Made by a program: the position numbers and the translations under genes
The notes under the pieces: generated by a model
What the model was told of the DNA's origin: nothing
What the model saw: the letters and a program-made list of their open reading frames with translations, nothing else
Databases searched by the model: none
NCBI RefSeq assembly: GCF_030684315.1
Contig: NC_081355.1
Location: forward strand, 54,049,909 to 54,113,908
Source of the DNA: Stegostoma tigrinum
Taxonomy: Eukaryota
Reading direction: 5' to 3'
DNA length: 64,000 nucleotides
In this document: piece by piece, positions 10,124 to 63,937 of the stretch
Position numbering within the stretch: position 1 is the stretch's first letter
How the letters are laid out: the number at the start of each line of letters is the position of its first letter

Positions 10124-10222
10124 TTCTGATGAAGGGTCTAGGCCCGAAACATCAGCTTTTGTGCTCCTAAGATGCTGCTTGGCCTGCTGTGTTCATCCAG
10201 CTCCACAATTTGTTATCTTAGG
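10124..10222 (+). mobile_element. PLE terminal-repeat fragment with HHR-like motif
   Basis: TTCTGATGAAGGGTCTAGGCCCGAAACATCAGC...TGTTATCTT; about 100 bp from a DNAH5 acceptor. Confidence 0.8.
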
Positions 10223-11251: not shown

Positions 11252-11800
11252 GGGGAGGCAATGGCCTAGTAGTATTCTCGCTGGACTATTAATCCAGATA
11301 ATGTTCTAGGGAGAGATAGTAGAAACTGCAGATGCTGGAGAATCTGAGACAACAAGGTGTACAGCTGGATGAACACGGCAGGCCAAGTAGCATCATAGGA
11401 GCAGGAAAGCTGACGTTTCGGCTTTCTGCAGAAGGGTCTAGGCCTGAAACATCAGTTTTCCTGTTCCTATGATGCTGCTTGGCCTGCTGTGTTCATCCAA
11501 CTCTACACCTTGTTATCTCAATGTTCTGGGGGTCCAGGTTCAAATTCGGCCAATGCAGATGATGGAATCTGAATTGAGAAGAAAAAATCTTGAATTAAGA
11601 GTCTACCAATGACCATGAGTCCATTGGTGATTGTTGGAAAACCCATTCGGATTCATTACTGCCCTTTAAGGAAGGAACTTCCATCCTTACCTGGTCTGGC
11701 CTACATGTGACAAGTTGACTCTTATCTGCCCTCTTGCCAATTAGGAATGGGCAATAAATGCTGGTCTAGCCAGCGATGCCCCCATCCATGAAGAATATTA
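11252..11800 (+). mobile_element. tRNA-derived DeuSINE-like (SacSINE1-like) element, interrupted by the mini-PLE
   Basis: tRNA-like head TGGCCTAGT...GGTTCAAATTC, central CCTTACCTGGTCTGGCCTACATGTGAC and GGGCAATAAATGCTGG tail. Confidence 0.6.
11312..11520. mobile_element. Miniature PLE fold-back (two inverted terminal-repeat fragments) inside a SINE
   Basis: Minus arm 11312-11422, plus arm 11423-11520; TSD AATGTTCT(A/G)GGG at 11300-11311 and 11520-11531. Confidence 0.85.
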
Positions 11801-14256: not shown

Positions 14257-14972
14257 AGAGAGAAAGTAAGAACTGAAGATGCTGGAGAAGCTGAGATAAC
14301 AAGGTGTAGAGTTGGATGAACACAACAGGCCAAGCAGAATCAGAGGAGCCGGAAAGCTGATGTTTCGAAACTTCTTCCGAAATGGGGGAGGGGAAGAGAG
14401 TTCTGAAATAAGTAGGGAGAGAGGGGGAGGCAGATAGAAGATCGATAAAAGAGAACAAAGGTGGAGAGGAGACAGACAAGTTAAAGAGGCGGGGATGGAG
14501 CCAGTAAAGGTGAGTGTAGGTGGGGAGTTAGGGAGGGGAAAGGTCAGTCCAGGGGGTATCTACAGGGCAAGGAGGCAAGATGAGGCTAGTACCTGGGAGA
14601 TGATGGGGGTTGGACTTGAGGTGGGAGGAAGAACAGGTTAGGGAGGTGGGAACAAGCTTGGTTAGTTTTGGGATGCAGTGGGGGAAGGGGATGAACTGGG
14701 CTGGTTTTGGGATGCAGTGGGGGAAGGGGAGATTTTGAAGCTTGTGAAGTCCACGTTGATGCCATTGGGCTGCAGGGTTCCCAAGTGGAATATGAGTTGC
14801 TGTTCCTGCAACCTTCGGGTGACATCATTGTGGCACTGCAGGAGGCACAGGATGGACATGTCATCTGAGGAATGGGAGGGGTAGTTGAAATGGTTCGCGA
14901 TGGGGAGGTGCAGTTGTTTGTTGTGAACCAAGCGTAGGTGTTCTGCAAAGCGGTCCCCAAGTCTCCGCTTGG
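14257..14972 (-). mobile_element. PLE 3' fragment inserted in a CR1 LINE
   Basis: End of GIY-YIG (IANHFN...EQQLIFHLGTLQPNGINVDF) plus the 3' UTR shared with the other PLE copies. Confidence 0.85.
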
Positions 14973-16211
14973 TAGGGTAGGACTTGTATTGTTAAGGGTA
15001 GGGTCCTGAGTAATGTTGTCGAACAGAGAGACCTACGGTTTCAGGTAAATAGTTCTTTGAAAGTTGTGTTGCTGGTAGACAGGTGGCTCATCAGTCATTT
15101 AGCATGTTTGCTTCATTGCTTAGAAAATTGAGAATGGGATTTGGGGCGTCATGTTGAGGTTGTACAGGGCGCTGGCGAGGCCACTTTTGGAGAACTGTGT
15201 ACAGCTCTGGTTGTCCTCGTATAGAAGAGATAATATTACATTAGAGAGGGTTCGAAAAAGATTTGCCAGAATGCTGCCAGGACTGGAGGGTTTGAGTTAT
15301 AAGGAGAAGCTTGATAGGCTGGGACTCTTTTACACCGGAGCATAGGAGGTTGAAGGGTTATCTTAGAGGTTTATGAAATCATGAAGAGCATAAATAAAGT
15401 GAAAAGCAAAGGTCTTTACCCAAACTCAAAACTAGGGGACATATTTTTAAAGTGAGAGTAGGAAGATTTAAAAGGGACCTGAGGGACAATGTTTCACAGA
15501 GAGGTTTGCACGTGGAATCAACAGCCAGAGGAAATGGCAGATGCAGGTTAATTACAACATTTACAAGACATCTGGACAGATACAAGAAGATGAAGGGTTT
15601 ATACAGGGATATGGGCCAAATGCAGCAAGTGGGAGTAGTTTAGTTTGGGAAACTTGATCAACATAGATGAGTTGGACCGAACTTATATGACTCTGTAAAC
15701 GTAGTCATTTGAGAGTGATTTGACTGAAATTTATAAAATAAATTAGATTTTCTTTTTGTAGCCTAATGAATTTCAACTGGATAAGTCAGGAAAAACCAAT
15801 GTGCAATTTATAGCAGGATAGAATTAAACATTACGGGATTTCCTTTCTCAGAGGTCAGTTTGGAACAGGTTATAAGGTCATCCAAAGATTTCTAATTTGA
15901 TGTATTCCAATGAGAGCAGAAGCTGTTCCCAACTGCAACAAAGCTCAAGCCGTATAACAGGATATTGACCCTATAATATATCAAGGCCAATGTGATCTCC
16001 TGTTTGGTTACAATAACCTATGTGGGTCAGTGAGGAATTTTTCAATTTTTTTCCTAATACTAGGCTGAGACATTTATTGTTTTGTGGATTCTCCCATGTG
16101 GTTGCATGGCTTTAGGTAAGTGGAGTTTATTTATTGTGATACAAGAGGTATTTTAAATAAGACTGATCGTTTTTATATGACCACATTAATAGCACTGCAC
16201 TTTTGGGTGAA

Positions 16212-16825: not shown

Positions 16826-17880
16826 ATTGTTCCATTTGAGATCCATTCCATAAATACCAATGACAAAATTAGCAGAAGCTGATAAACAGCTTAAAGAAAC
16901 TGGCAATCAATATGCAATGGTATATGAAAATAAGTAAGAAGCTGAAATTCCATGAGGGCAAGGGACTGATGGTGCCCTGTATCCTGAGTGTTGCTATCTT
17001 CCACCATAACTGCAATTCCCTGTTGAAATTCTAAAGTAGTGGCAAAGATAGTTTATACAGTTTCTCAGGGGTTTCATCCCTTTGGTTAAATGATCAGTTA
17101 CTTCCATTGAATAAAACAATTGTTTTGAAGGCTTGAATATTAAAACAAACGAAGAGAAGGTACTATGAGAGCTTGAGTTTATGAGCTGTAACTTCTGCAA
17201 GGAAAATTCATTGAGATTGTGTGTTTAATCATATTTATGTTCGTACTTACGAGTTGCATCATCAGTGTTACATTGCTTTTCGTGCATAAACACACAGAAA
17301 TATATACATAACGCTGATAAAAGAAGTTTCGCATAATACTGTAAATAGGAATTCCAATTTGGTAATGGTGGAATATAGAGTAGTAATCACAATTTTAAAA
17401 ATCCATTTGCTCTTCTGATTCCCATCACGTCTTCCTAACATTTTTCAGTACTCTAAATACTCTATTGTCACGAAAGCAATTGAAGATGCACTATAATAGT
17501 CACTACCAAACTGACATGTAGCTGAATGCTGGCATGATGTGGGTCCCAGATCACAATCTACCATGAAAAAGTGAGAAGCAAAACATAAGCAGAAAGTTAA
17601 CCTGTTTTGTTAGTCAGAAAACTGACAGTATTTTGATGTAGTATTTTGATTTCACTCCCACAAAGTCAATGGAGGATAAAATAAAATCAGTTACAGTGTA
17701 AAACCTGCAGATGACCCAAACATTTCAGCTTCCTGCCAGAGTATGGTGGTTAAAATTAACCCTATAGGATCTGGTTCACATAGTACTCTAGTATGAAACC
17801 ATTGAATTAAAATAGCTTTGGAGATGCATTGATGTGTTCTTGAAAAGAATATTTAAACAAAGACAACAGCTCTCAAACTC

Positions 17881-20800
17881 AGAGACAATAGGAAGTGCAG
17901 ATGCTAGAGAATCCAAGATAACAGGGTGTGGAGCTGGATGAACACAGCAGGCCAAGCAGCATCAGAGGAGCAGGAAAGCTGATGCTTCGGGCCTAGACCA
18001 TTCATCAGAAATGGGGGAGGGGAAGAGGGTTCTGAAGTAAATGGGGAGACAGGGGGAGGCGGATTGAAGATGGATAGAGGAGAAGATAGTTGGACAAGAG
18101 AGAGACAAGTTAAAGAGACAGGGATGGAGCCAGTAAAGGTGAGTGTAGGTGGGGAGGTCGGGAGGGGATAGTTCAGTCCAGGGAGGATGGACAGGTCAAG
18201 GGGGCAGGATAAGGTTAGTAGGAAGGAAATGGGGGTGTGGCTTGAGGAGGGAGGAGGGGATAGGTGGGAGGAAGAACAGGTTAGGGAGGCAGGGATGAGT
18301 TTATCTGGTTTTGGGATGCAGTAGGGGGAGGGGAGATTTTGAAGCTTGTGAAATCCACATTGATACCATTGGACTGCAGGGTTCCCAAGCAGAATATTAG
18401 TTGCTGTTCCTGCAACCTTCGGGTGGCATCGTTGCGGCACTGCAGTTGGCCCAGGATGGACTTGTCGTCTGAAGAATGGGAGGGGGGAGTTGAAATGATT
18501 CGCAACCAGGAGATGCAGCTGTTTATTGCGAACCGAGCGGAGGTGTTCTGCAAAGCAGACCCCAAGCCTCTGCTTGGTTTCCCTGATGTAGAGGAGGCCA
18601 CAAGGGGTACAGTGGATGCAGTATACCACATTAGCAGATGTGCAAGTGAACATCTGCTTGATGTGGAACGTCTTCTTGGGACCTGGGATGGGGATGAGGC
18701 AGGAGGTGTGGGGGTAGGTGTAGCACTTCCTGCGGTTGCAGGGAAAAGTGCCGGGTGTGGTGGGACCGGAGGGGAGTGTGAAGCGAACAAGGGAGTCACG
18801 GAGAGAGCGATCCCTCCAGAAAGCAGACAAGGGTGGGGAGGGAAAAATGTCTTTGGTGGTGGGGTTGGATTGCAGATGGCAGAAGTGTCGGAGGATGATG
18901 TGTTGTATCCGGAGGTTGGTGGGGTGGTAAGTGAGGATGAGGGTGATTCTCTTTTGGTTGTTATTGCGGGAACCGGCTGTGAGGGATGAGTTGCGGGAAA
19001 TGCGGGAGACACGGTTGAGGGCGTTCTTGACCACTGCGGGGGGGATGTTGCGGTCCTTGAAAAATGAGGACATCTGAGATGTGTAGTAGTGGAATGCTTC
19101 ATCCTGGGAGCAGATGCGGTGGAGGCGAAGGAATTGGGAATAGGGGATGGCATTTTTACAGGAAGGTGGGTGTGAGGAGGTATATTCTAGGTAGCTGTTG
19201 GAGTCGGTGGGCTTGAAATGGATATCAGTTTCTAGGTGGTTGCCCGAGTTGGAGACAGAGAGGTCCAGGAAAGTGAAGGAGGTGCTAGGGATAGTTCAGG
19301 TGAACTTAAGGTTGGGGTGGAAGGTGTTGTTGAAGTGGATGACCTGTTCGAGCTCCTCGTGAGAGCACGTGGCGGTGCCAATACAGTTGTCAATGTAATG
19401 GAGGAAGAGGTGAGGTTTTGGGCCGGTGTAGGACCCGCATAGGCCTGGGCTATGCCTGCCTCTTTGTAGGTTATGTGGAACAATCCCTCTTCCGCACCTA
19501 CACTGGCGCTAAACCAACTCTTCCTCTGTTACATTGATCACTGTATCAGCGCAGGCTCGTGCTCCCACAAGGAGCTCGAACAGTTCATCCACTTCACCAA
19601 CATCTTTCACCCCAACCTTAAGTTCACCTGGGCTATCTCTAACACCTCCCTCACCTTCCTGGACCTCTCTGTCTCCATCTTGGGCATCACCTAGAAACTG
19701 ATATCCATTTCAAGCGCACTGACTCCCACAGCTACCTAGAATACACCTCCTCCCACCCACCTTCCTACAAAAATGCCATCCCCTATTCCTAATGCCTTCG
19801 CTTCTGCCGCATCTGCTCCCAGGATGAGGCATTCCACTACCGTACATCTCAGATGTCCTCGTTTTTCAAGGACCATAACTTGCCCCCTGCAGCGGTTGAG
19901 AACGCCCTCAACCGTGTCTGCCACATTTCCTGCAACTCATCCCTTACACCCCGTCCCTGCAATAACAACCAAAAGAGAATCCCCCTCATCCTCACATACC
20001 ACTCCACCAACCTCTGGATACAACGCATCAGCCTCCGACGTTTCCGCCATCTGCAATTCGACATCACCACCAAAGACATTTTTCCCTCCCCACCCTTGTC
20101 TGCTTTCTGGAGGCACCACTGTCTCCATGACTCTCTTGTCCGCTCCACACTCCCCTCCAGCCCCACCACACCCGGCACTTTTCCCTGCAACCGCAGGAAT
20201 TGCTACCTCTGCCCCCACACCTCCTCCCTCACCCCCATCCCAGGCCCCAAGAAGACTTTCCACATCAAGCAGATGTTCACCTGCACAACTGCTAATGTGG
20301 TATACTGCATCCGCTGTACCCGTTGTGGCCTCCTCGACATCAGGGATACCAAGTGGAGGCTTGGGGTCCACTTTACAGAACACCTACGTTCGGTTCACAA
20401 TAAACAGTTGCACGTCCGGGTCGCAAATCATTTCAACTCCCCCTCTCATTCCTCAAACGACATGTCCATCCTGGGCCTCCTGCAGTGCCACAATGATGCC
20501 ACTTGAAGGTTGCAGGAACAGAAACTCAAATTCTGCTTGGAAACCGTGCAGCCCAATGGCATCAATGTGGATTTCACAAGCTTCAAAATCTCCCCTCCCC
20601 GTACTGCATCCCAAAACCAGCAGAAGTTGTACGCACCTCCCTAACCTGTTCTTCCTCTCACCTATCCCCTCCTCCCACATCAAGCCGCACCACATTTCCT
20701 ACCTACTAACCTCATCCCGTCCCCTTGACCAGTCCGTCCTCGCTGGGTTGACCAATCTCCTCCCGACCTCCCCACCTGCACTTACCTTTACTGGCTTCAT

Positions 20801-20949
20801 CCCTGCCTCTTTAACTTGTCTGTCTCTTCTCCACCTATCTTCTCCTCTATCCATCTTCAATCAGCCTCCCCCTCTCTCCCTATTTATTTCAGAACCCTCT
20901 TCCCCCTCCCCCATTTCTGATGAAGGGTCTAGGCCCGAAACATCAGCTC
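17881..20949. mobile_element. Older Penelope-like element, inverted/fold-back insertion
   Basis: Minus arm 17881-19432 and plus arm 19433-20949 with frameshifted RT/GIY-YIG; flanking repeat CAGCTCTC(A/T)AACTCAGA at 17867-17883 and 20944-20960. Confidence 0.9.
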
Positions 20950-20989
20950 TCTAACTCAGACAGATTATTTTGTGCATGTTTCCTCTTAC

Positions 20990-24899: not shown

Positions 24900-26940
24900 T
24901 AAGCCCATCAAATGCATATTCCGCACCATGCAGGAAATCCAGGACACACCTCATATCCTGGACAATCATGTGCAGGAACAGTCGTTGGCTGAAGGGTTAG
25001 AGTTCTTGGTTATAGAGATTAAACAGCTTATGAATAGCATGTTTCTGAAAGTCGTCAACTCACAACTTAAGAGAGTAAATAAGCATTGCTAAGAAATAGT
25101 AGAAATTGCAGTTGATGGAGTCAGAGATAACACAGTGTGGAAATAGAGGAGGCCAGCAGGCCAGGCAGCATCAGAGGAGCAGGAAAGTTGATATTTTGGG
25201 TCAGGACTTCAGAAATGGGAGGAGGGGTAAGGGAGCTGGGAAATAAATAGAGGAGAGGTGGGGCTGGGGAAGGTAGGTGGGATGGTGATAGGTGAGTGCA
25301 GGTAGGGAGTGGTGGAGATTGGTCGGTGAGGTGGGAGAGGTGGATACCTGGGAGAGAAGATGGACAGATTGTGTCCGTTCAAGGAGATGGGGATGAGAGG
25401 GAGGGTTAATCATGGGATGAGGCCGAGGGTGGGGAGATTTTGAAACTGGTAAAATCCATGTTTAGACCATTGGGTTATAGGCTCCCAAGTTGGAATAGGA
25501 GGTGCTGCTCCTCCAGTTTGTGGGTGGCATCAGTGTGACAGTGGAGGAGGCCCAGGATGGACATGTCACCCAGGGAGTGGGAGGGGGAGTTGAAATGGTT
25601 CGCATCCGGAAGGTGTTAACGTTTGTCGCAAACAGAGGACAGGTGCTGTATAAAATGGTCTCCGAGCCTCCGCTTGGTCTCTCCAATGTAGAGAATGCCA
25701 CATCAGGAGCAGTGGATGCAATAGACCACATTGACTGGTGTGCAGGTAAACTTCTGTGTAATGTGGAACGTTTGGTTTGGCCTTGAATGGAGGTGAGGGG
25801 TGTAGGTGTAGGGCAGATGTAGCACTTCTTGTGGTTGCAGGGAAAGGTGCCAGGGGTGGTGGGGCTAGTGGGGGGTGTGGAGTAGATGAGAGAGTCATGG
25901 AGAGAGTGGTCCATACAGAAGGCGTGTAAATGTGGGAGGGAAATATATCTTTTGTTATGGGGTCAGGTTGTAGGTGGCTGAAGTGGCGGAGATTGACACA
26001 TTAGATATGGAGATTGGTGGGGTGATACATGAGAAAAAGGGGGATTCTGTCTTTGTTTTTGTTGGTGGGAGGGGATGTGAGGGCAGAGGTGCAGGAAACG
26101 CAAGAGATGTGGTTGAGAGAATTTTCAATCACCAAAGGGATGAAGTTGCAGTCCTTGAAATAGGAGGACATCTGGAATGTGCAGGAGTGGAATGCCCCAT
26201 CTTGGGAGCAGACATGGCAGAGGCAGAGGAATTGGGAGTACAGGATTGCATTCCTGCAGTCAGGTGGTTGAGAGGTGGTATAGTCTAGGTAGCTGTGGGA
26301 GTTGGTGGGCTTGAAATAGATGCTGGTTTCGAGGCAGTCACCACAGATGGAGACAGAGGGGTTCAGGAATGAGAGGGAGGTATCAGGGATGGTCCAGGTG
26401 AACTTGAGGTTGGAGTGAGAAGTGTTAGTAAAGTTGGTGAACTGTTCAAGTTCCTCGTAAGAGTACAAGGCAGCGCCTATACAGTTATTGATATAGCAGA
26501 GGAAGAGGTGGAGAATAGTGCCAGTGTAACAGTGGAAGAGGTTCTGTTCCACATAATAAGTATTTCTAAACAAGAAAGGAGGTCAAGGCAGATAAAGCAG
26601 GAGTCACGTGAGTGCATCTCACTCTCCAATCAGTATTCAGTTCAGAACATTAGTGCAGATGATGATTTCTCTGAAGAACACAGCTATAGAAAAGTACAAA
26701 GTAATGTAGGTGGCTCAGCTCTATTGGGGGTAAATGAAGGAAGAAGTTCAGGAAAGCAATAGTGATAGGGAATTCTATAATTTGAGGAACAGGTAAACAT
26801 TTTTTGAATTCATTCTTTGGGTGTGGGCATGGTTGACATGGCCAACATCATTGCTCTTGACTCTGGGATGGCATGCTGCCTTCCAGTTCTCAGAACTAGA
26901 GGCATCAGTGAGCTGTGCAAAACATTTTGTAGAGGGTATT
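24900..26940 (+). mobile_element. CR1 ORF1 (esterase-type) remnant split by a PLE
   Basis: AIVIGNSI-like and CCLP-like motifs at about 26757-26885; upstream half at about 24900-25075. Confidence 0.5.
25092..26556 (-). mobile_element. Diverged PLE (RT C-terminus + GIY-YIG + 3' end) inserted in a CR1 ORF1 remnant
   Basis: ORFs 26001-26573 and 25462-25914 are homologous to the PLE ORF; degenerate TSD AATAAG(C/T)ATT(G/T)CTAA at 25078-25092 and 26555-26569. Confidence 0.85.
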
Positions 26941-27399: not shown

Positions 27400-27876
27400 G
27401 AAAAATATAAAATTACCAGAAGCCTAAATAGATTGTATTAGAAAGACCTAATTTCCTTACCTGAGAGATCAATAACTAAGGGCAAAAATTTAAAGTAACT
27501 GGCAGAAGAATTAGAGAGACTTGAGAAGAAATATTTTCACAAAGATTGCAGTGATGGTGATTCTGGAACAATTCTCATTACATTTAAAAAGGATATGCAC
27601 TTGAAGTGACATAACCTGCAGAGCTACAGATTAAGAACTTGAATGAGGCAGAATAGTTTTTTGTAAGTTTTTTTGTAGTTGCAATTATATGCAGCCTTAG
27701 TGAAACTATGCCTGGAATATTGTGCACTGTTCCAGTTACTTTAGTTGAGCATATATTTTCCTGTAGAGAAGGTTTAACAGTTAGCAGGAACATACTGCAA
27801 GGAGAAATTGAGGACACCTTGTCTGTATTGGAACAGTACAGCACAGGAACAGGCCCTTTAACCCCCCAATGAACAT

Positions 27877-27991
27877 CCTACTGCACATGGTATGCCCAGG
27901 CAGTCTCTCATCTAAGTACTAGCCAGGCCTGAATATGCTTAACTTCTGAGATCAGACAAGTTCCAATGTTTTCAGACTAGTACAGTGAAGA
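27877..27991 (-). pseudogene. 5S rRNA-derived sequence (pseudogene or SINE3-like head)
   Basis: Minus strand ...CTTGTCTGATCTCAGAAGTTAAGCATATTCAGGCCTGGCTAGTACTTAGATGAGAGACTGCCTGGGCATACCATGTGCAGTAGG aligns to vertebrate 5S rRNA with many substitutions. Confidence 0.85.
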
Positions 27992-29855
27992 ACAAAATGT
28001 GATCTCCTTGAAGCATACAAGGTTCGTACTGAGCTTAACAGGTAGATATTGGAAGAATGTATTCTCTGGTTTCAGTGCTTAGAACCCAGTGCTCACAGTA
28101 TGAGAATAAGAGTTAAGCCATTTAGGACTGAGTTGCAGATGAGTTTCATCACTAGGCGGTTATGAAACATTGAAATTCTCTATACCCTAAAGGGCTGTGG
28201 AGGCTCAGTCATTGAGTATGTTCAAGATGGAGATCATTACATTTCTGAATAGTACAGACATCAAGCGTCATGGGGATAGTGGCACGGAGGTACTTCCCAG
28301 CAATGATCCATTTGAATGGTCCAGCAGGCTAAAGGGCTGAATTGCCTACTCCTGCTGCTATTTCATACGTTCTTATGAATGGATATGATCAGTCGATAGG
28401 CTCTTCTTCTGTGCTAAACCTTCTGCTTCCTACGTTTCTAAGTATAGTGGCTACATCGTTGAACGAGTAGCTTACAGGGATTTTTGAGGTAGTGAGTCAA
28501 TTAAACAAGTGGATTTAAATTCAGTTAATTAAATAAACATGGAATTAAAAGCCTGTATCAGTAAAGACAATCTGAAACTACAAGATCATTGTCATCTACA
28601 TCATTTCTTTTAATAGAAGAAAACATGCTGTCCTAGCCCAGGCTACATATGTCTCTAGTTCAAGGGAAGTGTTGTTGGCTCTTAACCACTCAATGTTAAT
28701 TTCAAAGAAAGCCACACTGATTTATGCTGCACCCCTTTGACAAAAACATTACTTGCTTTCACCATGTAGTCGATTCTATTATTCTTTAATGTTGATTCCT
28801 ACTATTGAGCTGCAGTGATATAATCAAGCCAAAATTCTTATGTATAGCTAGGCAGAACATGAAATTTACTTCTTAAATATTTTACATTAAATTGCATTTT
28901 TGGAGATGTACATGAGGTGAAGTTAGAAGCCAAAAGGTATGAAAATCTTGTACAAAAACACAAACTACAGTTGCAAGACAGGCAACAACACTCCACAATT
29001 ATAACTTTATTTTTCCAAGGTCAATTTTGTTATCCAGCAGAGTTGCTACTCTCAAATTCAAGTTAAGATCCCTGTTGCACTTGATTGAAATAATCATTTC
29101 TAGTAAAAAGATGGGGCTGAAAAAGAGACATTATCACTGGATTTTACTTGGTGAGGTGGTGGTAGAATGGGAGGGAGGTGGTTTCACACTTCTGCCTGTG
29201 ATACAGCAATAAATGGCAGATTGCAACTTCAGGGTTTCTGCATTATTATGCACTTGAATTAAATCCTGAGATTGCAATCAGTTTCAGCATTGTAATGTCT
29301 TGCTGTTTAATTTCCCCAAAAAATCCAGTCCTCTGTGTTTTCAGATGCCATCAACAAAGGTCAGCATGTAGATGAGAATTTTCTGCTCTTTTCAGAATCA
29401 TGACATTATCTTTTACATCACCCAAGCAGGCAATGGGCCTCAGTTTGATTTTATCTAAGATTCCTTAGTAATGTAGCTTTCTTTTTATGCTGCACTGAAG
29501 TGCTAGCTATGTTATATGCTCAATTCCTAGAGCAGAACACAAACCCAAAACCTCCAGACTCAGATCCTCAAATGTTACTACTGAGTGCAGCTAACATTTG
29601 AGTCATTTTTTGTTTTGCCTATTTCTGAAATATGTAATTTTACCGCATATGAATACGTGATCATGAATTATTGTTACTTTATCACGTAATACTCAAAAGC
29701 CAATGAAGACCACAGCAAAATCAGTTGAAACAATCTCGAATTACATGATATAAATTAGTTTAAATATTTACCTTGTAGGCAGTTTACCAAATAAATATTT
29801 TAAATTAATAAATAAATATTTCTGCTGTGAAGCAATGCAAGTTTAATATTCTCAC

Positions 29856-32187: not shown

Positions 32188-32265
32188 AAGGAAGTATACC
32201 CTGATACAAAATAAAATTCAATACACTACAATCAAAAGAAATATGTTCATGTATTCTGTCACTAC

Positions 32266-32380
32266 CTGGCTAATGACAAGTCAAAAAGACCCAGGAACTG
32301 GCGTAGAGAGGTTTGGTACATAACATTCACCATGCTCATCTCAGTAATCAAAAAATATAGGATGCTTCCTCTGGTTGCCA
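32266..32380 (-). CDS. DNAH5: Dynein heavy chain exon, (V)[37 protein letters not shown](R) (absent from ORF track)
   Basis: Manual translation; tag|TG acceptor (phase 1), AG|gtagt donor (phase 2); 115 nt; phases match both neighbouring exons. Confidence 0.9.
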
Positions 32381-33049
32381 CTATGAAGAGAATAATAAAA
32401 TGAAGACAATTTATAAATGGTAGGCAAATATCCATGGCCTAACCAGTGCTGTCTTTGGTAACTACACAAGTTAGTTCTAGGCTACTACTGTATAAATGAA
32501 TGACTTTACGCAAGAAATCACTCCAAATACCTCGTAATGTATAGTGTTCAAAACTGGAAGCAATAGGAGGACTTTTCCTAATAATCCTTGCCAAGCAACA
32601 GGACAAACTGTTGATTGGGAGCCCAAATGGTGCAGGATTTGGCTTTGTTTCAGCATTAGTACCATGTCTCTGGGTACCTCGAACAATCAGAGTAGACGGA
32701 CAGACGAACATGTTGGATCTGTCAAAGGTTCTCTAATTAAAAGGGATCAAGACATGCATTACAAGACGCAGTGGAGAGGCTGCAGTAACCACTGGAAAGG
32801 AAAAGAGACCTTGGAAGGCCATTCTTACGAGTAGTGTCCTCCCCACCTTCAAATCTGCTTTTTCATCATCACTTCTCTCACCAGAAAAATGATTCCTGAT
32901 CTCTCAGTTTCTGTAATTACCCATTTCCAACCTCTCCTTTCCTTTCAAAGTTGTTGAACACACTGTCACTTTCAGATTCTCTACATATCCATATCTGAAC
33001 CCCTCCAACTTGGCTCGTATTTAAATGTCTGCTGTCCAAAATTACAGAG

Positions 33050-36050: not shown

Positions 36051-36843
36051 ATGTGTCTAGGAGGTACTATCTAAGCAGTCTTGGTGAATTTCTGCAATTC
36101 ATCTTGTAGACGGTCCACATTGCTGCCACTGAGCATCAGTAGTGGAGGGAGTGAATGTTTGCGAATGTGGTACCAAGCAAGCAGGCTGCTTTTTCCTGGA
36201 CAGTGTCAAACTTCTTGAGTGTTGTTGGAACTGCACTCATCCAGGCAAGCATGAAGTATTCCATCATACTTTCACTTTTATGCAAGTATAAATGGTAAAA
36301 ATGGGTTATTGTCACTGATAAAAATTTGTGCAACTATATAGAAGAGGCTGAGGCCAAGGTTACAAAGATGAATGAAAATCTTTTTTGTGACATTTCAGGT
36401 ATCAGAGTTAGATAGTTCAATATGACAAACTTCTGGACTTTAAGCCTGAAGTGCCAGCCAGTGAGGTTAATGGATTTGAAACTTCTGCATAAACATTTAT
36501 GGTATCTGTGGAAAAGGCAAGTAAGAAAAGCCTTTGGAGTCAATGGAAGAGGTGGGCAGCAGGGCAGAATGTTACTGGTTTGCATTTGAGGTACTTTAGA
36601 ATCCCAAAACACCAAATACCGGCTTTACAAACAATGTTGTAAAATCTTTAGCACATACTGAAAACTCCAGTAGGAACCCAGTTTTGAATACAGATAATCT
36701 GAGAACTTTGGTTAAGATTCTAAGAAAGCAAACATAAAGAAATTAAGAGATAATGGGAACTGCAGATGCTGGAGATTCCAAGATAATAAAATGTGAGGCT
36801 GGATGAACACAGCAGGCCAAGCAGCATCTCAGGAGCACAAAAG

Positions 36844-36873
36844 CTGACGTTTCGGGCCTAGACCCTTCATCAG
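36844..36873 (-). ncRNA. Minimal hammerhead ribozyme-like motif (mirror copy, sense to the DNAH5 pre-mRNA)
   Basis: Exact reverse complement of 39894-39923. Confidence 0.65.
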
Positions 36874-38135
36874 AGAGGGGGATGGGGGGAGGGAACTGGA
36901 ATAAATAGGGAGAGAGGGGGAGGCGGACCGAAGATGGAGAGTAAAGAAGATAGGTGGAGAGAGTGTAGGTGGGGAGGTAGGGAGGGGATAGGTCAGTCCA
37001 GGGAAGACGGACAGGTCAAGGAGGTGGGATGAGGTTAGTAGGTAGCGGGGGGTGCGGCTTGGGGTGGGAGGAAGGGATGGGTGAGAGGAAGAACCGGTTA
37101 GGGAGGCAGAGACCGGTTGGACTGGTTTTGGGATGCAGTGGGTGGGGGGGAAGAGCTGGGCTGGTTGTGTGGTGCAGTGGGGGGAGGGGACGAACTGGGC
37201 TGGTTGAGGGATGCAGTAGGGGAAGGGGAGATTTTGAAACTGGTGAAGTCCACATTGATACCATATGGCTGCAGGGTTCCCAGGCGGAATATGAGTTGCT
37301 GTTCCTGCAACCTTCGGGTGGCATCATTGTGGCAGAGCAGGAGGCCCATGATGGACATGTCATCAAGAGAATGGGAGGGGGAGTGGAAATGGTTTGCGAC
37401 TGGGAGGTGCAGTTGTTTTTTGCGAACTGAGCGGAGGTGTTCTGCAAAGCGGTCCCCAAGCCTCCGCTTGGTTTCCCCAATGTAGAGGAAGCCGCACCGG
37501 GTACAGTGGATGCAGTATACCACATTGGTAGATGTGCAGGTGAACCTCTGCTTGATGTGGAATGTCATCTTGGGGCCTGGGATGGGGGTGAGGGAGGAGG
37601 TGTGGGGACAAGTGTAGCATTTCCTGCGGTTGCAGGGGAAGGTGCCGGGTGTGGTGGGGTTGGAGGGCAGTGTGGAGCGAACAAGGGAGTCGCGGAGAGA
37701 GTGGTCTCTCCGGAAAGCAGACAGGGGAGGGGATGGAAAAATGTCTTGGGTGGTGGGGTCGGATTGTAAATGGCGGAAGTGTCGGAGGATAATGCGTTGT
37801 ATCCGGAGGTTGGTAGGGTGGTGTGTGAGAACGAGGGGGATCCTCTTGGGGCGGTTGTGGCGGGGGCGGGGTGTGAGGGATGTGTCGCGGGAAATGCGGG
37901 AGACGCGGTCAAGGGCGTTCTCGATCACCGTGGGGGGAAAGTTGCGGTCCTTAAAGAACTTGGACATCTGGGATGTGCGGGAGTGGAATGTCTTGTCGTG
38001 GGAGCAGATGCGGCGGAGGCGGAGGAATTGGGAATAGGGGATGGAATTTTTGCAGGAGGGTGGGTGGGAGGAGGTGTATTCTAGGTAGCTGTGGGAGTCG
38101 GTGGGCTTGAAGTGGACATCAGTTACAAGCTGGTT

Positions 38136-39669
38136 CCTCCAGGACTTCCAATTCCCTGGCCCCCAACACCTCATATTCACCATGGACGTCCAGTCCCTGT
38201 ACACCTGCATTCCGCATGGAGATGGCCTCAAGGCCCTCCGCTTCTTCCTGTCCCGCAGGCCCGACCAGTCCCCCTCCACCGACACTCTCATCCGCCTAGC
38301 TGAACTCGTCCTCACACTCAACAACTTCTCTTTTGACTCCTCCCACTTCCTACAGACTAAGGGGGTGGCCATGGGCACCCGCATGGGCCCCAGCTATGCC
38401 TGCCTCTTTGTAGGTTACGTGGAACAGTCCCTCTTCCGCACCTACACAGGCCCCAAACCCCACCTCTTCCTCCGGTACATTGATGACTGTATCGGCGCCG
38501 CCTCTTGCTCCCCAGAGGAGCTCGAACAGTTCATCCACTTCACCAACACCTTCCACCCCAACCTTCAGTTCACCTGGGCCATCTCCAGCACATCCCTCAC
38601 CTTCCTGGACCTCTCAGTCTCCATCTCAGGCAACCAGCTTGTAACTGATGTCCACTTCAAGCCCACCGACTCCCACAGCTACCTAGAATACACCTCCTCC
38701 CACCCACCCTCCTGCAAAAATTCCATCCCCTATTCCCAATTCCTCCGCCTCCGCCGCATCTGCTCCCACGACAAGACATTCCACTCCCGCACATCCCAGA
38801 TGTCCAAGTTCTTTAAGGACCGCAACTTTCCCCCCACGGTGATCGAGAACGCCCTTGACCGCGTCTCCCGCATTTCCCGCGACACATCCCTCACACCCCG
38901 CCCCCGCCACAACCGCCCCAAGAGGATCCCCCTCGTTCTCACACACCACCCTACCAACCTCCGGATACAACGCATTATCCTCCGACACTTCCGCCATTTA
39001 CAATCCGACCCCACCACCCAAGACATTTTTCCATCCCCTCCCCTGTCTGCTTTCCGGAGAGACCACTCTCTCCGCGACTCCCTTGTTCGCTCCACACTGC
39101 CCTCCAACCCCACCACACCCGGCACCTTCCCCTGCAACCGCAGGAAATGCTACACTTGTCCCCACACCTCCTCCCTCACCCCCATCCCAGGCCCCAAGAT
39201 GACATTCCACATCAAGCAGAGGTTCACCTGCACATCTACCAATGTGGTATACTGCATCCACTGTACCCGGTGCGGCTTCCTCTACATTGGGGAAACCAAG
39301 CGGAGGCTTGGGGACCGCTTTGCAGAACACCTCCGCTCAGTTCGCAAAAAACAACTGCACCTCCCAGTCGCAAACCATTTCCACTCCCCCTCCCATTCTC
39401 TTGATGACATGTCCATCATGGGCCTCCTGCACTGCCACAATGATGCCACCCGAAGGTTGCAGGAACAGCAACTCATATTCCGCCTGGGAACCCTGCAGCC
39501 ATATGGTATCAATGTGGACTTCACCAGTTTCAAAATCTCCCCTTCCCCTACTGCATCCCTCAACCAGCCCAGTTCGTCCCCTCCCCCCACTGCACCACAC
39601 AACCAGCCCAGCTCTTCCCCCCCACCCACTGCATCCCAAAACCAGTCCAACCGGTCTCTGCCTCCCTAA
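38136..39669 (+). CDS. 5'-truncated but uninterrupted PLE ORF: RT + Cys linker + GIY-YIG endonuclease
   Basis: TMDVQSLYT, GVAMGTRMGPSYA and RYIDD RT motifs; CNRRKCYTC linker; NVVYCIHC..C...YIGETKR...RFAEH...VANHF endonuclease. No native start: the first 11-12 aa of ORF 38101 come from the opposite arm. Confidence 0.85.
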
Positions 39670-39893
39670 CCGGTTCTTCCTCTCACCCATCCCTTCCTCC
39701 CACCCCAAGCCGCACCCCCCGCTACCTACTAACCTCATCCCACCTCCTTGACCTGTCCGTCTTCCCTGGACTGACCTATCCCCTCCCTACCTCCCCACCT
39801 ACACTCTCTCCACCTATCTTCTTTACTCTCCATCTTCGGTCCGCCTCCCCCTCTCTCCCTATTTATTCCAGTTCCCTCCCCCCATTCCCCTCT

Positions 39894-39923
39894 CTGATGA
39901 AGGGTCTAGGCCCGAAACGTCAG
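39894..39923 (+). ncRNA. Minimal hammerhead ribozyme-like motif in PLE terminal repeat
   Basis: CTGATGA-A-GGGT(CTAG)GCCC-GAAAC-GTC-AG: core boxes, stem II, palindromic ACGT and a GUC triplet; stem I is weak. Confidence 0.65.
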
Positions 39924-40676
39924 CTTTTGTGCTCCTGAGATGCTGCTTGGCCTGCTGTGTTCATCCATAAAGAAATTAACATTGCTTTCAAATGACAGGG
40001 TCAGATTTCACCACAGAGATAATTATGAGGCTGGAATGGTCACCATTATTTACGTGGAAATGAATGGAATATTACCTTTGGCAATATTCACAAGCAATGA
40101 GGTATAGGATTTCAGAAGCATCCGAAATGCAATGTGAGATGTGATAATAGCACCTTGCCAACTATACACTGAATGATTACGACTTGTCGTTACAGTGTAA
40201 TTACCTTTTTGAGGTCTGATAAGTCTTAATTATTGTCAAACGATTCTTTGTTTGTACAACTTAACTTTTACAATCTCATTCCTTCACATGTTAATATTGT
40301 TAGAGTTGTACAGAAACTTAAAGTTAAAACGAAGTATTTTTTATTTTGAAACCTTCTCTTAGTGGAATTTTCCTTTCTTCTCTTTTTGTCTTTTGTACCT
40401 AATTTAATATTGAATTAACATATTAATTGATGCTGCCTGCTTTGGATTCTGCAGTCCTAATGAATGACTCTTCCAACTTATTGTTTAAAACATATACCGT
40501 TGTCTTTCATACAGGTTCTCGGTGTTTCATAGAGGATGTTGTGCTTTTTGGAACCTCCACACAAAAGTCTACGTTCAAGGGGAAGTGTGACAAGTGGTTG
40601 CCACTGTTCATTTGCCAAATCAACAGACAGAAATGTGGCCCAATATTTCTTCCCATTTGTAACAATGCATCCTCAC

Positions 40677-40920
40677 CCGGTCTGTACTCCTCACGAGCAG
40701 CGTTAATCTGTATTTCTGTTTCAGCAGCTATGTGCAGTTTCTGTGTAACCTCCTCAGCTGTCTTTTTTGTATTGTTCAGAACAGTGATAAGGCTTTCATC
40801 GTCTACAAGGGAACCCTTTGTGCTTGTCAGACGATACAGTAGATTGTCTTCCAACTCTTTCATTTTCCTTTTATTTGATGTTACGTCTTCCATGAGATCT
40901 GTTCTCTCTTTTTCCAGTTC
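40677..40920 (-). CDS. DNAH5: Dynein heavy chain exon (strut/buttress coiled coil), [13 protein letters not shown]...LEDNLLYRL...REEYRP
   Basis: tag|GAA acceptor, G|gtgagg donor (phase 1); 244 nt. Confidence 0.92.
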
Positions 40921-41029: not shown

Positions 41030-42340
41030 GGTTAGATACCATCCACAAGATGCACTGCAGCAGCTCATCAGGATTCTGCTGACAGCACCTTCCAACCTGT
41101 GACCTGTACCACCTGGGAGAACAAGTGCCTCAAATGCATGGAGACATCATCACTTGCAAATTACCTCCAGGTCACATACCAACCAGACTTGGAACTACAT
41201 TGCTATTCTTTCACTGTCACCGGGTCATTACTTCGGAACTGTGGATGATCAGCCATGATCATAATGAATAGTGGTGCTGGCTTGAAGGGCCAAATGGCTT
41301 ACTCCAGCACCTATTGTCTATTGTCTATAACTCCCTTCCTCCCAGCACCAAGCACACCACATGAACTGTAGAAATTCAAGGCGGCAGGTTACTGCCACCT
41401 TCTCAAGGGCAATTAGCCAGAGGCAGTCATATCCCAAGAGTGAATAAAAACCAAGATCAAGTTTGGAAGCTGTTAAAGGAGCTTGGGTGAGCTTCATGCA
41501 GTGCTTTCAAAAGCAAACACATACTGCTGCCATTGTTCATTGGTGGTGGAGGGTGGGAAATGATATTGCATGGGGTACTGATCAAGCAGCTGCTTGGTCC
41601 TAAATGGCGCTGAGCTTCTTTAGAGTTGTTGGGGCTGCATTTATTTAGCCATTCCTGATTTGTATGTTCCAAATGTCAGCAGGTCTTAAGGAGTCAGGGG
41701 TTACATTACTCACCATAACATTCCCAGCGATAGTAGGAACTGCCGATGCTGGAGAATCTGAGATAACACGGTATGAAGCTGGATGAACTCAGCAAGCCAA
41801 GCAGCATCACACCATGTTATAAAATTCCCAGCCTCTGCTCTGTTTTTGTATACATACATTTACACAGCAAGGGCTAGTTACATTTCTGGTCAAAGGGAAC
41901 ACCAAGCTACTGATTTTGGGAATTTCAGCAAGAGTAATGCCATTTAATGTCAAGGGAAAATGAATTTCTTTTTCACTTTGCAGGTGGTGTTATGCTTACA
42001 ACCTACACTATTGAACACATAAGGAAAGTGTGCATTTCACTTTCAAAATGGCAGCATCAAATATGAACATTTTGCCTGGACCCAAGATGTAATTCAGGCT
42101 GTAGTCAGGAAACTTGTAAGTCTTGTACTGACACATGGACAGACATGCCTCAGCACATCTCTGGGAATTTACTTACAGTGCCAAGTACCAACCCTAGGTG
42201 TTGAGGATCATCTAACTCCACCTCAATTGAAGAGACTGGTCTAGTGTGGGTAGAATTTATTAAACTGGCCAGGAATACATTGGAATCATCACGTCTGGTG
42301 ATAACAAATGAAAGACGATTCCAGGACCTAATGACCTTAG
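41030..42340. mobile_element. L2-like LINE 3' fragments in both orientations with small nested insertions
   Basis: CCACCTTCTCAAGGGCAATTAG tail shared with the DeuSINE-like tail; similar to 35430-36270. Confidence 0.45.
41729..41820 (-). mobile_element. PLE 3'-end fragment with a 14-nt inverted tail
   Basis: TSD ATAA(C/A)ATTCCCAGC at 41715-41728 and 41819-41832. Confidence 0.75.
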
Positions 42341-44349: not shown

Positions 44350-46774
44350 TAAGTCTTCACTCTCTCCATTTTACCACAATAGTTTGTGTAATGAAGGCTT
44401 TTGACATGGCCAAGGCGTCTGATAGATAATTCAAACTAAACTTCTGGACTATGTAACTCTTTAAATGTTTTTCTGAAGTCTATGGAAATGGGTGCAATTT
44501 AGCAGCGCCTTCACCCTTCCAGGGACATTGCAAGATCACATTTGCTGATGGAAATACTGCAAACAGGTAGCCAGAGGTTTAAAAAAAATTGCCATCAGCC
44601 AGGACCGGAAGTAGGGCCATGCCAGGGTTAAGGTGATGGGTGGAAACTCCCTTTGTATGAATGAGGGAAAATTAGCATTATATATTTAAAAATTCTTGTT
44701 TTATTATTAAAAGCTATGTAGTATGATAACAATAAGCTGTACCAAATAAAAATTCAGTATGCCGAGTTGACAATGGATCTTTGATCCCAGCTGGATTGCA
44801 ACATAAGCTCTGACATGTCAGTAACAGGAACAGAAATGCTTTAAAAATGAGTTGACGGAAACCATATACAGGACAATCAGACTAGAATTGTAAAGGAAGT
44901 GGTAGCTGTAATGTCCTTTCCCTTCACTGGGGATTTGGATTCTATTGTCACTTTTCCTAGACTGGTCCTTGGAAGCAGTGGTAAGCAAAATAGAGGAGAA
45001 AGAATTCACTTAGTAACGACAGCATGACTTCTCTGATTATATTACTTGTCACAGATGAGGAAGGAATTGTCCATTGAGGCTCTGCGAAGACTGGAACCGG
45101 AGTGTGTGTCATTGGGGCAGTGATATCAAGGAAGGTGAAAAGGGAAAAAGGGTCAGTATAGGTTTTCAGGTAATCACAAGATGTGAGTATGTTATGATAT
45201 GATTGGATAATATAATCATGTATGCTCATTTAATTATGATTGGATGACATAGTTATGTGCACTAACCTGCAATGCAGATGACATGAACACTATTGGATAG
45301 GGATACGGGTGAGTAAATTTGTAAGGTTTTGATTGGAAATTATCTGAAGGAGAAGCTGATTAGAACCTTTTATTGGCAGAAATAGCAATGAAACCTTAGC
45401 TTGTGTAATAAAGTTTGAAATGTACGTCATCCTTTGAAAAGTATGCCTCCCATGCATGCACGAATAAACATTTCAACAAAGAAACCTCAGTCTCGCCTGG
45501 TCTAGGAAGGAATAAACGGTTAAGAAGACACTTTAAGAAGGTCTCCCTACTTATTTTTTCCCCACTATTTGCAGCAATTGCAAATAAAATTTTTTGCTAT
45601 CATATTTGAAACAATTAGATGTGGTCCTAAGTAAATAATATTAGTTCAGTGAGCAAGTATAACTGTTGTCATGAGATCGTTACTCATATGGGATAAATAA
45701 TTAGGGCAGCTTTGCAGACAAATTTTGTTTCGATTTATTTTTGCTTAAAACCTGTACAATTTTGAAAACTTGATAAACAGAAACAAGTGACCCTGTAGCA
45801 AATAACTTTCTATTCTAGAGAATGGATGTGCTATCTATCATGTGTTGAAGACACTTTGCTCCATAGCTATGCAGTAAAATCTTTAGTGATTAAAATAATG
45901 CAAATTACATGTTAATGTTAACAAAGTCACATTTGTTCACATTTTAATTCAAAGCGCTAAAGAAAAAGTATAGGGTTTAGAGAGTAAGTACCCAAGTCAC
46001 TAAAAAATAAATTACTTCATGACAAATGTGACAATTTAATACAAGACATTTTTACAAACATTTGTTGTACAGCAATAGATTTTTAAGCTCTCCATTTATG
46101 CCTGTAACAGCCAAAACAACCTAGCCAATGCAACATTTTTAAATCTTGAGATTCTCACTTAGATCACTGCTCTTTCAGAATTTTCTAATTTTAGATACAT
46201 CATGAACTCGGAAATGCATACAACTGAAATTCATGGTTTCAGATATGCCACATCATACTTCCCTAACTTCATCTAATTGTTATCATTAAATACTCTCCTA
46301 TGAAGGAATACTAACAGAAATGTTATTAAAAATCAGTTACTGAGTGGTTGTACCTTTGGGCTTTACACTTCATTTAACTCTAGAGGAAGAACAGCTTTTA
46401 TTTACTTCTTAATAACTTCTATTATTGAATCAGCTAAAACCTACCTTTCTACATGAATGCTAAAGAAGTACATGATATTACAATATTGGGAATAAATTGA
46501 TTTCTGTATTTTATTTATCCACCAGCACTGTCTTTGATTACAAGGCTGAGGCGGAGACTCTCAGTGACAAATGTGACCTGCATTGCTTTTTATAATATTG
46601 GGACCCATAAGTGTGAAATACACCATACGATGATGCAATCACACCTGGAGTGGGTGGAATCAGTTTTTTTTTTGGTCTGAGCACATGGGCTCTACTAGTG
46701 AGTATGTGAGGCCCTTCAGAGGGCACTTTCACAGTCAACGTTGAAGTCATCAGTCATCATATCACCGTGTGTAT

Positions 46775-46863
46775 TCCTGAGATGCTGCTTGGCCTGCTGT
46801 GTTCATCCAGCCTCACATTTTATTATCTTGGAATCTCCAGCATCTGCAGTTCCCATTATCTCT
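46775..46863 (+). mobile_element. PLE 3'-end fragment of the young subfamily
   Basis: Matches the reverse complement of about 36746-36834; ends CCCATTATCTCT. Confidence 0.85.
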
Positions 46864-55134: not shown

Positions 55135-55662
55135 TGTGAGAGATGAGGATGATTAAACTGCAGTGAAAAGAATTACTCAGCTTTGAACAAAAAGACATCT
55201 AGTACTGAGTCGAGTGATAAGAAAAGGAGGTGAGGGCCAAGTGGTTAGAAACCAGAATGAACTGGTCCAAAACTACTAGCAGACACCCAGAGGGTGAAAA
55301 GGTTAAACTTTGCACAATAGACATAGTTGAAGCGCATGCCTAATGAGAGAATGCATATTAACTTTTACGCCCATGCTTGCGAAGTTGCTTAATTAGCATA
55401 ACATACGATGTATGAAGGGGGTAGGACAAGGGAAGTAACGGAAAGATTGTGCACCTTGGAGCTCAGATTGGACGGAGCTAAAAGGGGAGGATCTAGCCGG
55501 ATAAATGATGTATAAAAAGGGGAAGTTCCCTGGCCTGTGTGTGCCTCAGGCAACGGGGGGGCACCTGATTCTGCAGACTCATAATAGAGCTTAGGTTACG
55601 TGTTTCCAAGACTTTGCCTCCACTGACTCTGTGATTGTGAGCACGTGAATCTATGTCTCACA
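55135..55662 (+). repeat. ERV 5' LTR (528 bp)
   Basis: Direct repeat of 61558-62084 with about 24 substitutions and 1 indel by manual count; TATAAA at about 55511. Confidence 0.95.
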
Positions 55663-61557: not shown

Positions 61558-62084
61558 TGTGAGAGATAAGGATGATTAAACTGCAGTGAAAAGAATTACT
61601 CAGCTTTGAACAAAAAGACATCTAGTACTGAGCCGAGTGATAAGAAAAGGAGTTGAGGGCCAAATGGTTAGAAACCAGAATGAACCGGTCCAAAACTACT
61701 AGCAGACACCCAGAGGGTGAAAGGGTTAAACTTTGCACAATAGACATACTTGAAGCGCATGCCTAATAAGAGAATGCATATTAACTTTTACGCCCATGCT
61801 TGCAGAGCTGCTTAATTAGCTTAACATGCGATGTACGAAGGGGGTGGGACAAGGGAAGTAACGGAAAGATTGTGCACCTTGGAGCTCAGATTGGATGGAG
61901 CTAAAAGGGGAGGATCTAGCCGGATAAATGATGTATAAAAAGGGGAGGCTCCCTGGCCTGTGTGCGCCTCAGGCAACGGTGGGCACCCGATTCTGCAGAC
62001 TCGTAATAGAGCTTAGGTTACTTGTTTCCAAGACTTTGCCTCCACTGACTCTGTGATTGTGAGCACGTGAATCTATATCTCACA
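61558..62084 (+). repeat. ERV 3' LTR (527 bp)
   Basis: Copy of the 5' LTR, followed by TSD TGTC. Confidence 0.95.
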
Positions 62085-63790: not shown

Positions 63791-63937
63791 GAGATAGTAG
63801 GAACTGCAGATGTTGGAGAATCTGAGATAACAAGGCGTAGAGCTGGATGAACACAGCAGGCCAAGCAGCATCAGGGGACCAGGAAAGCTGATGTTTCAGG
63901 CCTAGACCCTTCTTCAGAAAGTTATCTTTTGTTACCT
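63791..63937 (-). mobile_element. PLE terminal-repeat fragment with HHR-like motif
   Basis: Same 3' repeat; degenerate TSD AAGCTTTAAT..AA.GAG at 63776-63793 and 63938-63955. Confidence 0.8.

Follow-up and report, generated by a model that had tools for sequence, protein, structure and literature searches.

The palindrome described here consists of two 5′-truncated copies of a Penelope-like element, joined head to head with their 3′ ends pointing outward, in the genome of the zebra shark Stegostoma tigrinum. We consider it rather likely that both copies were laid down in one event, in which each of the two ends of the cut target served as a primer and reverse transcription began close to the 3′ terminus of the element RNA. 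The locus lies in a window of 64,000 nt, by which we mean the whole stretch of DNA that was analysed, and has the following parts:

36733..36746, no strand: target-site duplication, left copy; a relative's contig is aligned up to 36746 and then departs
36746..36799, minus strand: 54-nt 3′ extension ('tail'), on the left arm only; stops at the family's long 3′ end
36800..38135, minus strand: left arm, inverted and more 5′-truncated, with RT thumb, Cys linker, GIY-YIG and 3′ UTR
38136..38631, plus strand: 496-nt spacer, RT core, in frame with the right arm
38632..39967, plus strand: right arm, the main-body copy, with its 3′ end 53–55 nt short of the long end
39966..39979, no strand: target-site duplication, right copy

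Anatomy of the palindrome

Re-measurement of the arms returned exactly the coordinates, the length and the two mismatches given in the preliminary description of this locus: 36800–38135 and 38632–39967 are inverted relative to each other, are 1336 nt long each and surround a 496-nt single-copy spacer. One mismatch (39431/37336) gives LLHCHND versus LLLCHND, while the other (39886/36881) falls in the 3′ UTR. At 37336, the A is private to the left arm; T makes up 99% of the family depth. The left arm is longer by 53–54 nt, up to 36746/36747, and the right arm ends at a CA common to the flanking repeat, so that the earlier account of a right arm about 54 nt short, with the long 3′ end on the left arm, holds in both respects. 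At least six other copies in the window terminate 0–2 nt from 36746, where loose contig ends are also found, and the family has two preferred 3′ ends, 36746 and 36781, which lie 35 nt apart.

The flanking repeat CATAAAGAAATTAA occurs only twice in the 64 kb, at 36733–36746 and 39966–39979; a 14-mer would match at a given site by chance with a probability of ~1.5e-8. A direct repeat of 12–14 bp had been noted before. It stands as a 14-mer present exactly twice, but the true target duplication is probably 11–14 nt, because the CA is common to the right arm and the last A (36746) probably belongs to the family's long end as well.

Support for the insertion and its host intron

Contigs from four read sets were examined over the left flank, the left arm and the spacer; the right junction lies outside these stretches. 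For the window's species, two samples contain the left junction, in contigs that run 21 and 23 nt beyond the repeat into the element and show 0 and 1 differences from the window. Both crossings fall under our bridging threshold of 31 letters, and one of the two samples may be the window's own source. In a relative that differs from the window at 34 of 531 nt (~6.4%), a 1381-nt contig is aligned over 36522–36746 and then departs, leaving 1126 letters unplaced. From this comparison, which extends to 36746, we infer an empty site with a single copy of the repeat in the relative. An empty site there and a single duplication bracketing both copies agree with the one insertion event proposed earlier. 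Raw bisulfite reads have zero coverage in the unique flank (36318–36661) and hence carry no allele information. Further runs with only a small share of matching words (X1–X3, X5–X9) do not enter the evidence. The joint 38135/38631 on 'opposite strands' was rejected as proof of other inverted copies: it is the normal continuity from spacer to arm.

Two exons flank the palindrome:

40678..40920, minus strand: DNAH5-like exon preceding the host intron; residues 3738–3818 of PDB chain 8j07_n0, DNAH5 being the best match
32265..32381, minus strand: the next DNAH5-like exon, following the host intron; residues 3819–3857 of PDB chain 8j07_n0

Judged by these matches, the two exons are consecutive and place the palindrome in an intron of a DNAH5-like gene on the minus strand, as had been proposed. 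The inversion junction (38135/38136) is bridged by none of the contigs listed, as would be the case if the palindrome were an assembly or chimeric-read artefact, such as a fold-back read. We regard this as very improbable: the DNAH5 exons on either side are collinear, the duplication is clean and the asymmetric ends fall at family-typical positions. In addition, the arms differ from each other at two positions, the left junction appears in two samples and the window holds aged copies of the same layout.

Coding content and class of the element

The plus-strand frame is open from 38089 to 39669, its element-derived portion beginning at ~38143. The element features are:

38143..39669, plus strand: 5′-truncated RT + GIY-YIG frame, 508 aa, corresponding to residues 341–801 of an 803-aa relative
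39133..39159, plus strand: CX4CxxC linker of the Neptune/Nematis type, joining RT and endonuclease (CNRRKCYTC, residues 331–339)
36846..36873, minus strand: minimal hammerhead-like core, left arm, identified by eye
39894..39921, plus strand: minimal hammerhead-like core, right arm, identified by eye

The frame is 56% identical to the 803-aa relative across 463 aa; among named proteins, those of Stegostoma tigrinum (94%) and Rhincodon typus (89%) are closest to it. Pfam places RVT_1 (E 5.9e-5) and then GIY-YIG (E 8.8e-4) in this one frame, each below the curated cut-off, and YIDD and YIG motifs are present. The CCHH residues of the endonuclease, aligned by eye to Fig. S2 of PMC8557442, are CIHCTRC at 371, EH at 395 and NH at 411. 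Based on domain order, we assign the element to the Penelope-like elements with a C-terminal endonuclease, and the Neptune-type Cys linker reported earlier is indeed there, with CNRRKCYTC between RT and GIY-YIG. Under the definitions in PMC8557442, which also supplies that of the CX2-5CxxC linker, the element is excluded from Penelope/Poseidon because this linker is present, and from Naiad/Chlamys because the endonuclease is C-terminal to the RT, not N-terminal. Neptune, which the same paper describes as paraphyletic, appears to fit better than Nematis, whose proteins have the linker too but a shorter spacer, the motifs being judged by eye. In the Fig. S2 rows, Neptune1_Nv resembles the shark element by eye in its CX2-5CxxC linker, its C-terminal CCHH endonuclease, the long spacer after CxxC and a similar C-terminal end. 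Four peptide motifs were sought in the supplement of PMC8557442; only YIGETKR was present, once, in Neptune1_Nv.

About 340 N-terminal residues are absent from the frame, so that the palindrome copy is not autonomous and cannot be the active source. The frame is uninterrupted, as first reported, but with these residues missing it tells little about activity.

The core letters at 39894–39921 follow what we take to be the hammerhead core pattern and are conserved in invertebrate relatives. An Rfam hammerhead search of the element gave no match at the gathering score or at E≤10, and the 3′ module folds no better than shuffles (z-score 0.59). Minimal hammerhead motifs are usual in Penelope-like elements (PMC6155905).

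Age of the insertion

Between the arms, divergence is 0.15% (2/1336), or 2.3% (CI 0.3–8.4%) of that separating the window from the relative. With the rate of 7e-10 mutations per generation given for the epaulette shark (PMC10587355), this amounts to ~1.1e6 generations (CI 1.3e5–3.9e6). Because the arm divergence is on the level of ordinary allelic diversity in a shark (0.002, PMC10587355), the insertion can be called young on the shark clock only. The earlier notion of a 'very recent' integration is not supported by this estimate of ~1e6 generations, and both samples carry the insertion.

The same layout in other copies

The window contains three head-to-head insertions in its 64 kb: besides the palindrome, these are 17882–20948 and 11312–11519, each with its own duplication. 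The first of the two is an aged twin, with arms that are 11.8% diverged. Inverted repeats had been put forward as a known feature of Penelope-like elements; they are described as such in PMC8557442 and PMC3846280, and the three cases in the window conform to this.

Our comparison set comprised 79 invertebrate-type loci of relatives, taken from metagenomes. An inverted repeat of at least 40 nt is present in 23 of the 79, including L012, which lies outside the head-to-head set. Six of the 79 (L001, L017, L024, L078, L054 and, weakly, L074) contain the element head to head, with its two ends visible and an 11–16-nt duplication, and in five invertebrate loci the spacers measure 769–1279 nt. The duplication of L074 is 11 nt long with 1 mismatch and has a score of 8, which is background: 8 of 150 random pairs scored at least 8. 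L054 additionally carries a small secondary insertion. An exact 29-nt search of the metagenome contigs with the shark end module gave 0 matches. Several candidates were dropped: L009 is head to head, with no tail and no duplication found; the contig terminates inside the repeat in L010, L048 and L076; the locus edge cuts the repeat in L007 and L058; and L043 and L021 have an inverted long-ended copy whose partner end is not seen. In L004, L008, L013, L014 and L072, and in second repeats of L021, L024 and L054, the arms are not from the element or the orientation is uncertain.

The recurrence of this layout in nine insertions bears on whether the two shark copies could have arrived separately, either as two independent insertions of a young subfamily at one spot or by an inverted duplication or gene conversion that made the arms alike afterwards. 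The family is certainly very abundant, with 284,289 matching records in run X10 (a count of records and not a copy number), and near-identical copies are common (41,447 records at ≥99%). Nevertheless, we hold separate arrival to be highly unlikely, since a single duplication brackets both copies, with none at the inner junction, and the layout is repeated in all nine insertions. Moreover, among the rows listed, a single base (37336) is nearly private; it belongs to one arm, and no such base is common to both arms or found in the spacer.

Two patterns run through the nine insertions. First, the long-tailed arm is the more 5′-truncated one in eight of nine (two-sided P=0.039): 3/3 in the window and 5/6 in the invertebrate relatives, where L054, with the opposite arm polarity, is the counter-example. 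Without L074, the count is 7/8 (P=0.07). Second, the short end and the target have bases in common, namely 2, 5, 1, 2, 2, 1, 4, 0 and 1 nt (sum 18; P 0.0005–0.006, two-sided null). The 2-nt match of L017 comes after 2 unaligned bases; a stricter count by eye, in which L017 is set to 0 and L054 is left out, sums to 15 in eight insertions (P=0.009). Both patterns come from a small sample, in which six of the nine cases represent one invertebrate lineage. They are possibly new: in the literature searched, to which older subscription papers and figures did not belong, no statement of the polarity rule was found. The same search yielded nothing on Penelope in the zebra shark, nothing on Penelope-like head-to-head copies with target-primed reverse transcription and GIY-YIG, and nothing relevant on twin priming of Penelope.

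How the palindrome may have formed

Priming from both target ends, the reading we favour, builds on the anatomy, the duplication, the RT/GIY-YIG content, the relative's empty site and the layout of the two further window copies and the six invertebrate copies; nicking, dual priming and cDNA joining are the steps that we would add. The endonuclease would nick both strands 11–14 nt apart, creating two 3′ overhangs. The top-strand end would prime cDNA synthesis at the family's long start site, giving 1389 nt (left arm and tail), and the bottom-strand end would prime 54 nt further in, aided by a 2-nt match, giving 1832 nt (right arm and spacer). Both cDNAs would then halt early, their ends would be joined with a 1-nt overlap and the gaps filled in. 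The resulting copy, without the N-terminal third of the protein, was dead on arrival.

The biochemistry of a Poseidon protein provides a precedent for the first steps: once purified, it cuts one strand of the target and then the other, extends both, begins synthesis at two RNA positions that delimit the tail and is predicted to form a dimer (PMC11167929). However, the RNA positions at which it initiates lack homology to the cleaved DNA, a finding that counts against the short-end matches as priming (PMC11167929), and junction matches could also arise by end-joining after trimming. The later steps of the reaction are, according to the same paper, still unvalidated, and the words 'tail' and 'inverted' do not occur in the text of its supplements, figures excluded.

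A single event could also have produced the inverted copy by self-priming, in which a cDNA folds back, maybe on an antisense template, and the endonuclease cuts the hairpin asymmetrically, with the tail lost on one arm, before it is joined to the target. In the literature, PMC3846280 ascribes head-to-head repeats to self-priming on the basis of palindromes at inverted junctions, and PMC8557442 credits the tails to endonuclease resolution of an intermediate. Self-priming would account for near-identical arms, and short matches are possible via end-joining. The shark inversion junction, when examined, differs from those in PMC3846280 in having no palindrome; instead, there is a 1-nt overlap (T at 38135), natural upstream sequence being visible in the loose contig ends at that position. 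This overlap, the 496-nt spacer and the long spacers of the five invertebrate loci argue against self-priming, and the tail would require an additional trimming step. Since each arm has sequence that is absent from the other, the tail on the left only and the spacer on the right only, a simple fold-back of one cDNA is disfavoured unless such trimming took place. On balance, we see self-priming as an unlikely origin, though one to be taken seriously.

Priming from both target ends leads to a further proposal, tandem twin priming on one RNA, which we put forward only tentatively and consider doubtful: the RTs of a dimer would start at the two nicks, 35–95 nt apart on the same RNA, with no overtaking. 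If true, this would explain the one-sided tail, the near-identical arms and the polarity rule, because a trailing RT could not overtake the leading RT, leaving the long-tailed arm more truncated. The abundant shark copies would then turn the long-open question of inverted-repeat formation into one that can be counted genome-wide.

Comparison with known systems

In LINE-1 twin priming, both target nicks prime, the 5′ part is inverted and internal priming involves a short match; the two parts meet with hardly any overlap, and the enzyme class differs from that of Penelope-like elements. In contrast, both shark copies start near the 3′ end, so that 1.3 kb are duplicated.

The layout itself is not unusual and has already been described for Penelope-like elements: typical features are a tail of 30–40 bp at one end and, at the 5′ end, an inverted 5′-truncated copy (PMC8557442, Fig. 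2 legend), an insert with a 9-bp duplication has been reported together with head-to-head as the most frequent arrangement (PMC3846280), and the layout is listed for curators in PMC8969392. Pen2a_Av (PMC3846280) is a close likeness in these respects, with an inverted 5′-truncated copy, head to head, a one-sided tail, a short duplication and RT followed by GIY-YIG. Compared with Pen2a_Av and the layout in PMC8557442, the shark arms are long (1336 nt, reaching into the RT), and there is neither a direct pLTR nor a full-length copy. The offset of 54 nt at the shark locus exceeds the published 30–40 nt; it is usually 35 nt in the family and 53–77 nt in the invertebrate relatives. Poseidon PAc of the green anole (PMC11167929) is reminiscent of the shark element in its two RT start sites bounding the tail, its A+T-rich targets and a hammerhead motif close to the 3′ module, the shark core being putative, but it belongs to another clade, lacks the Cys linker and is reported to initiate independently of homology.

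Taken alone, the locus carries little weight: it is a dead copy in an intron, arranged as one would expect for its class. It is useful as a trace of the insertion reaction that is clean and has hardly mutated since, and the polarity and short-match patterns form a rule that is testable in one shark assembly rich in copies.

One may also ask how genomes cope with numerous inverted repeats of kilobase size in their introns. From their sequence, it is plausible that both arms in the DNAH5 pre-mRNA could pair into a 1.3-kb RNA stem. The cruciform envisaged in the preliminary description is unlikely in duplex DNA because the 496-nt spacer separates the arms: for Alu repeats in yeast, break frequency is down by ~80% already at a 9-bp spacer (PMC8053094). 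Where long stretches of DNA are single-stranded, even repeats that lie far apart can have an effect (PMC10164571).

Further copies of the family in the window

The probably Neptune-type Penelope-like family that built the main palindrome (36733-39979) has left two further head-to-head insertions in the window, each consisting of two 5′-truncated copies with their 3′ ends outward, and seven further fragments in a single orientation, each of which ends near the long (36746) or the short (36781) 3′ end of the family:

1166-1258, family fragment, single orientation
10125-10219, family fragment, single orientation
11300-11531, head-to-head mini insertion, roughly 208 nt long
14259-14973, family fragment, single orientation
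17867-20958, older head-to-head insertion
17882-19432, left arm of the older insertion, carrying the long end
19433-20948, right arm of the older insertion
25093-26556, family fragment, single orientation
41726-41811, family fragment, single orientation
46762-46863, family fragment, single orientation
63791-63921, family fragment, single orientation

The arms of the older insertion have diverged by 11.8%. Its right arm falls 95-100 nt short of the long end and stops directly past the hammerhead-like core; the target duplication is 15 nt with one mismatch, and 5 nt are common to the element and the duplication. In the mini insertion, the left copy has the long end and the right copy the short end, offset by 33-34 nt, within a 12-nt duplication with one mismatch.

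Opposite-strand joints between the long end (36746) and the short end (36778-36783) were found in 8-58 contigs per row; we tentatively interpret them as sites elsewhere in the genome where a long-ended and a short-ended copy meet tail to tail. Among the invertebrate-type relatives from metagenomes, locus L054 (1489-2682) is likewise head-to-head, with a 13-nt duplication; its polarity is reversed, the inverted copy bearing the short end, and its left arm holds a small hairpin-like insertion flanked by its own short duplication. The relative at L072 (2721-3707) is 5′-truncated, with a long end and an 11-nt duplication and without an inverted copy.

Start point of short copies

Short copies begin upstream of the hammerhead-like ribozyme core rather than at its putative cut site. 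In two sequence runs compared with the left flank, left arm and spacer of the main palindrome, 655 (X10) and 713 (X11) family records diverge from the window sequence at 36874, the upstream edge of this core, and two copies in the window, at 10125 and 63921, likewise begin at about the equivalent point.

Other features in the window

A degenerate 5S rRNA-like sequence (27875-27992, minus strand, 47 bits) is probably a pseudogene or a 5S-derived repeat. Two copies of a separate repeat, unrelated to the Penelope-like element, lie at 55135-55434 and 61558-61857 and are 95% alike.
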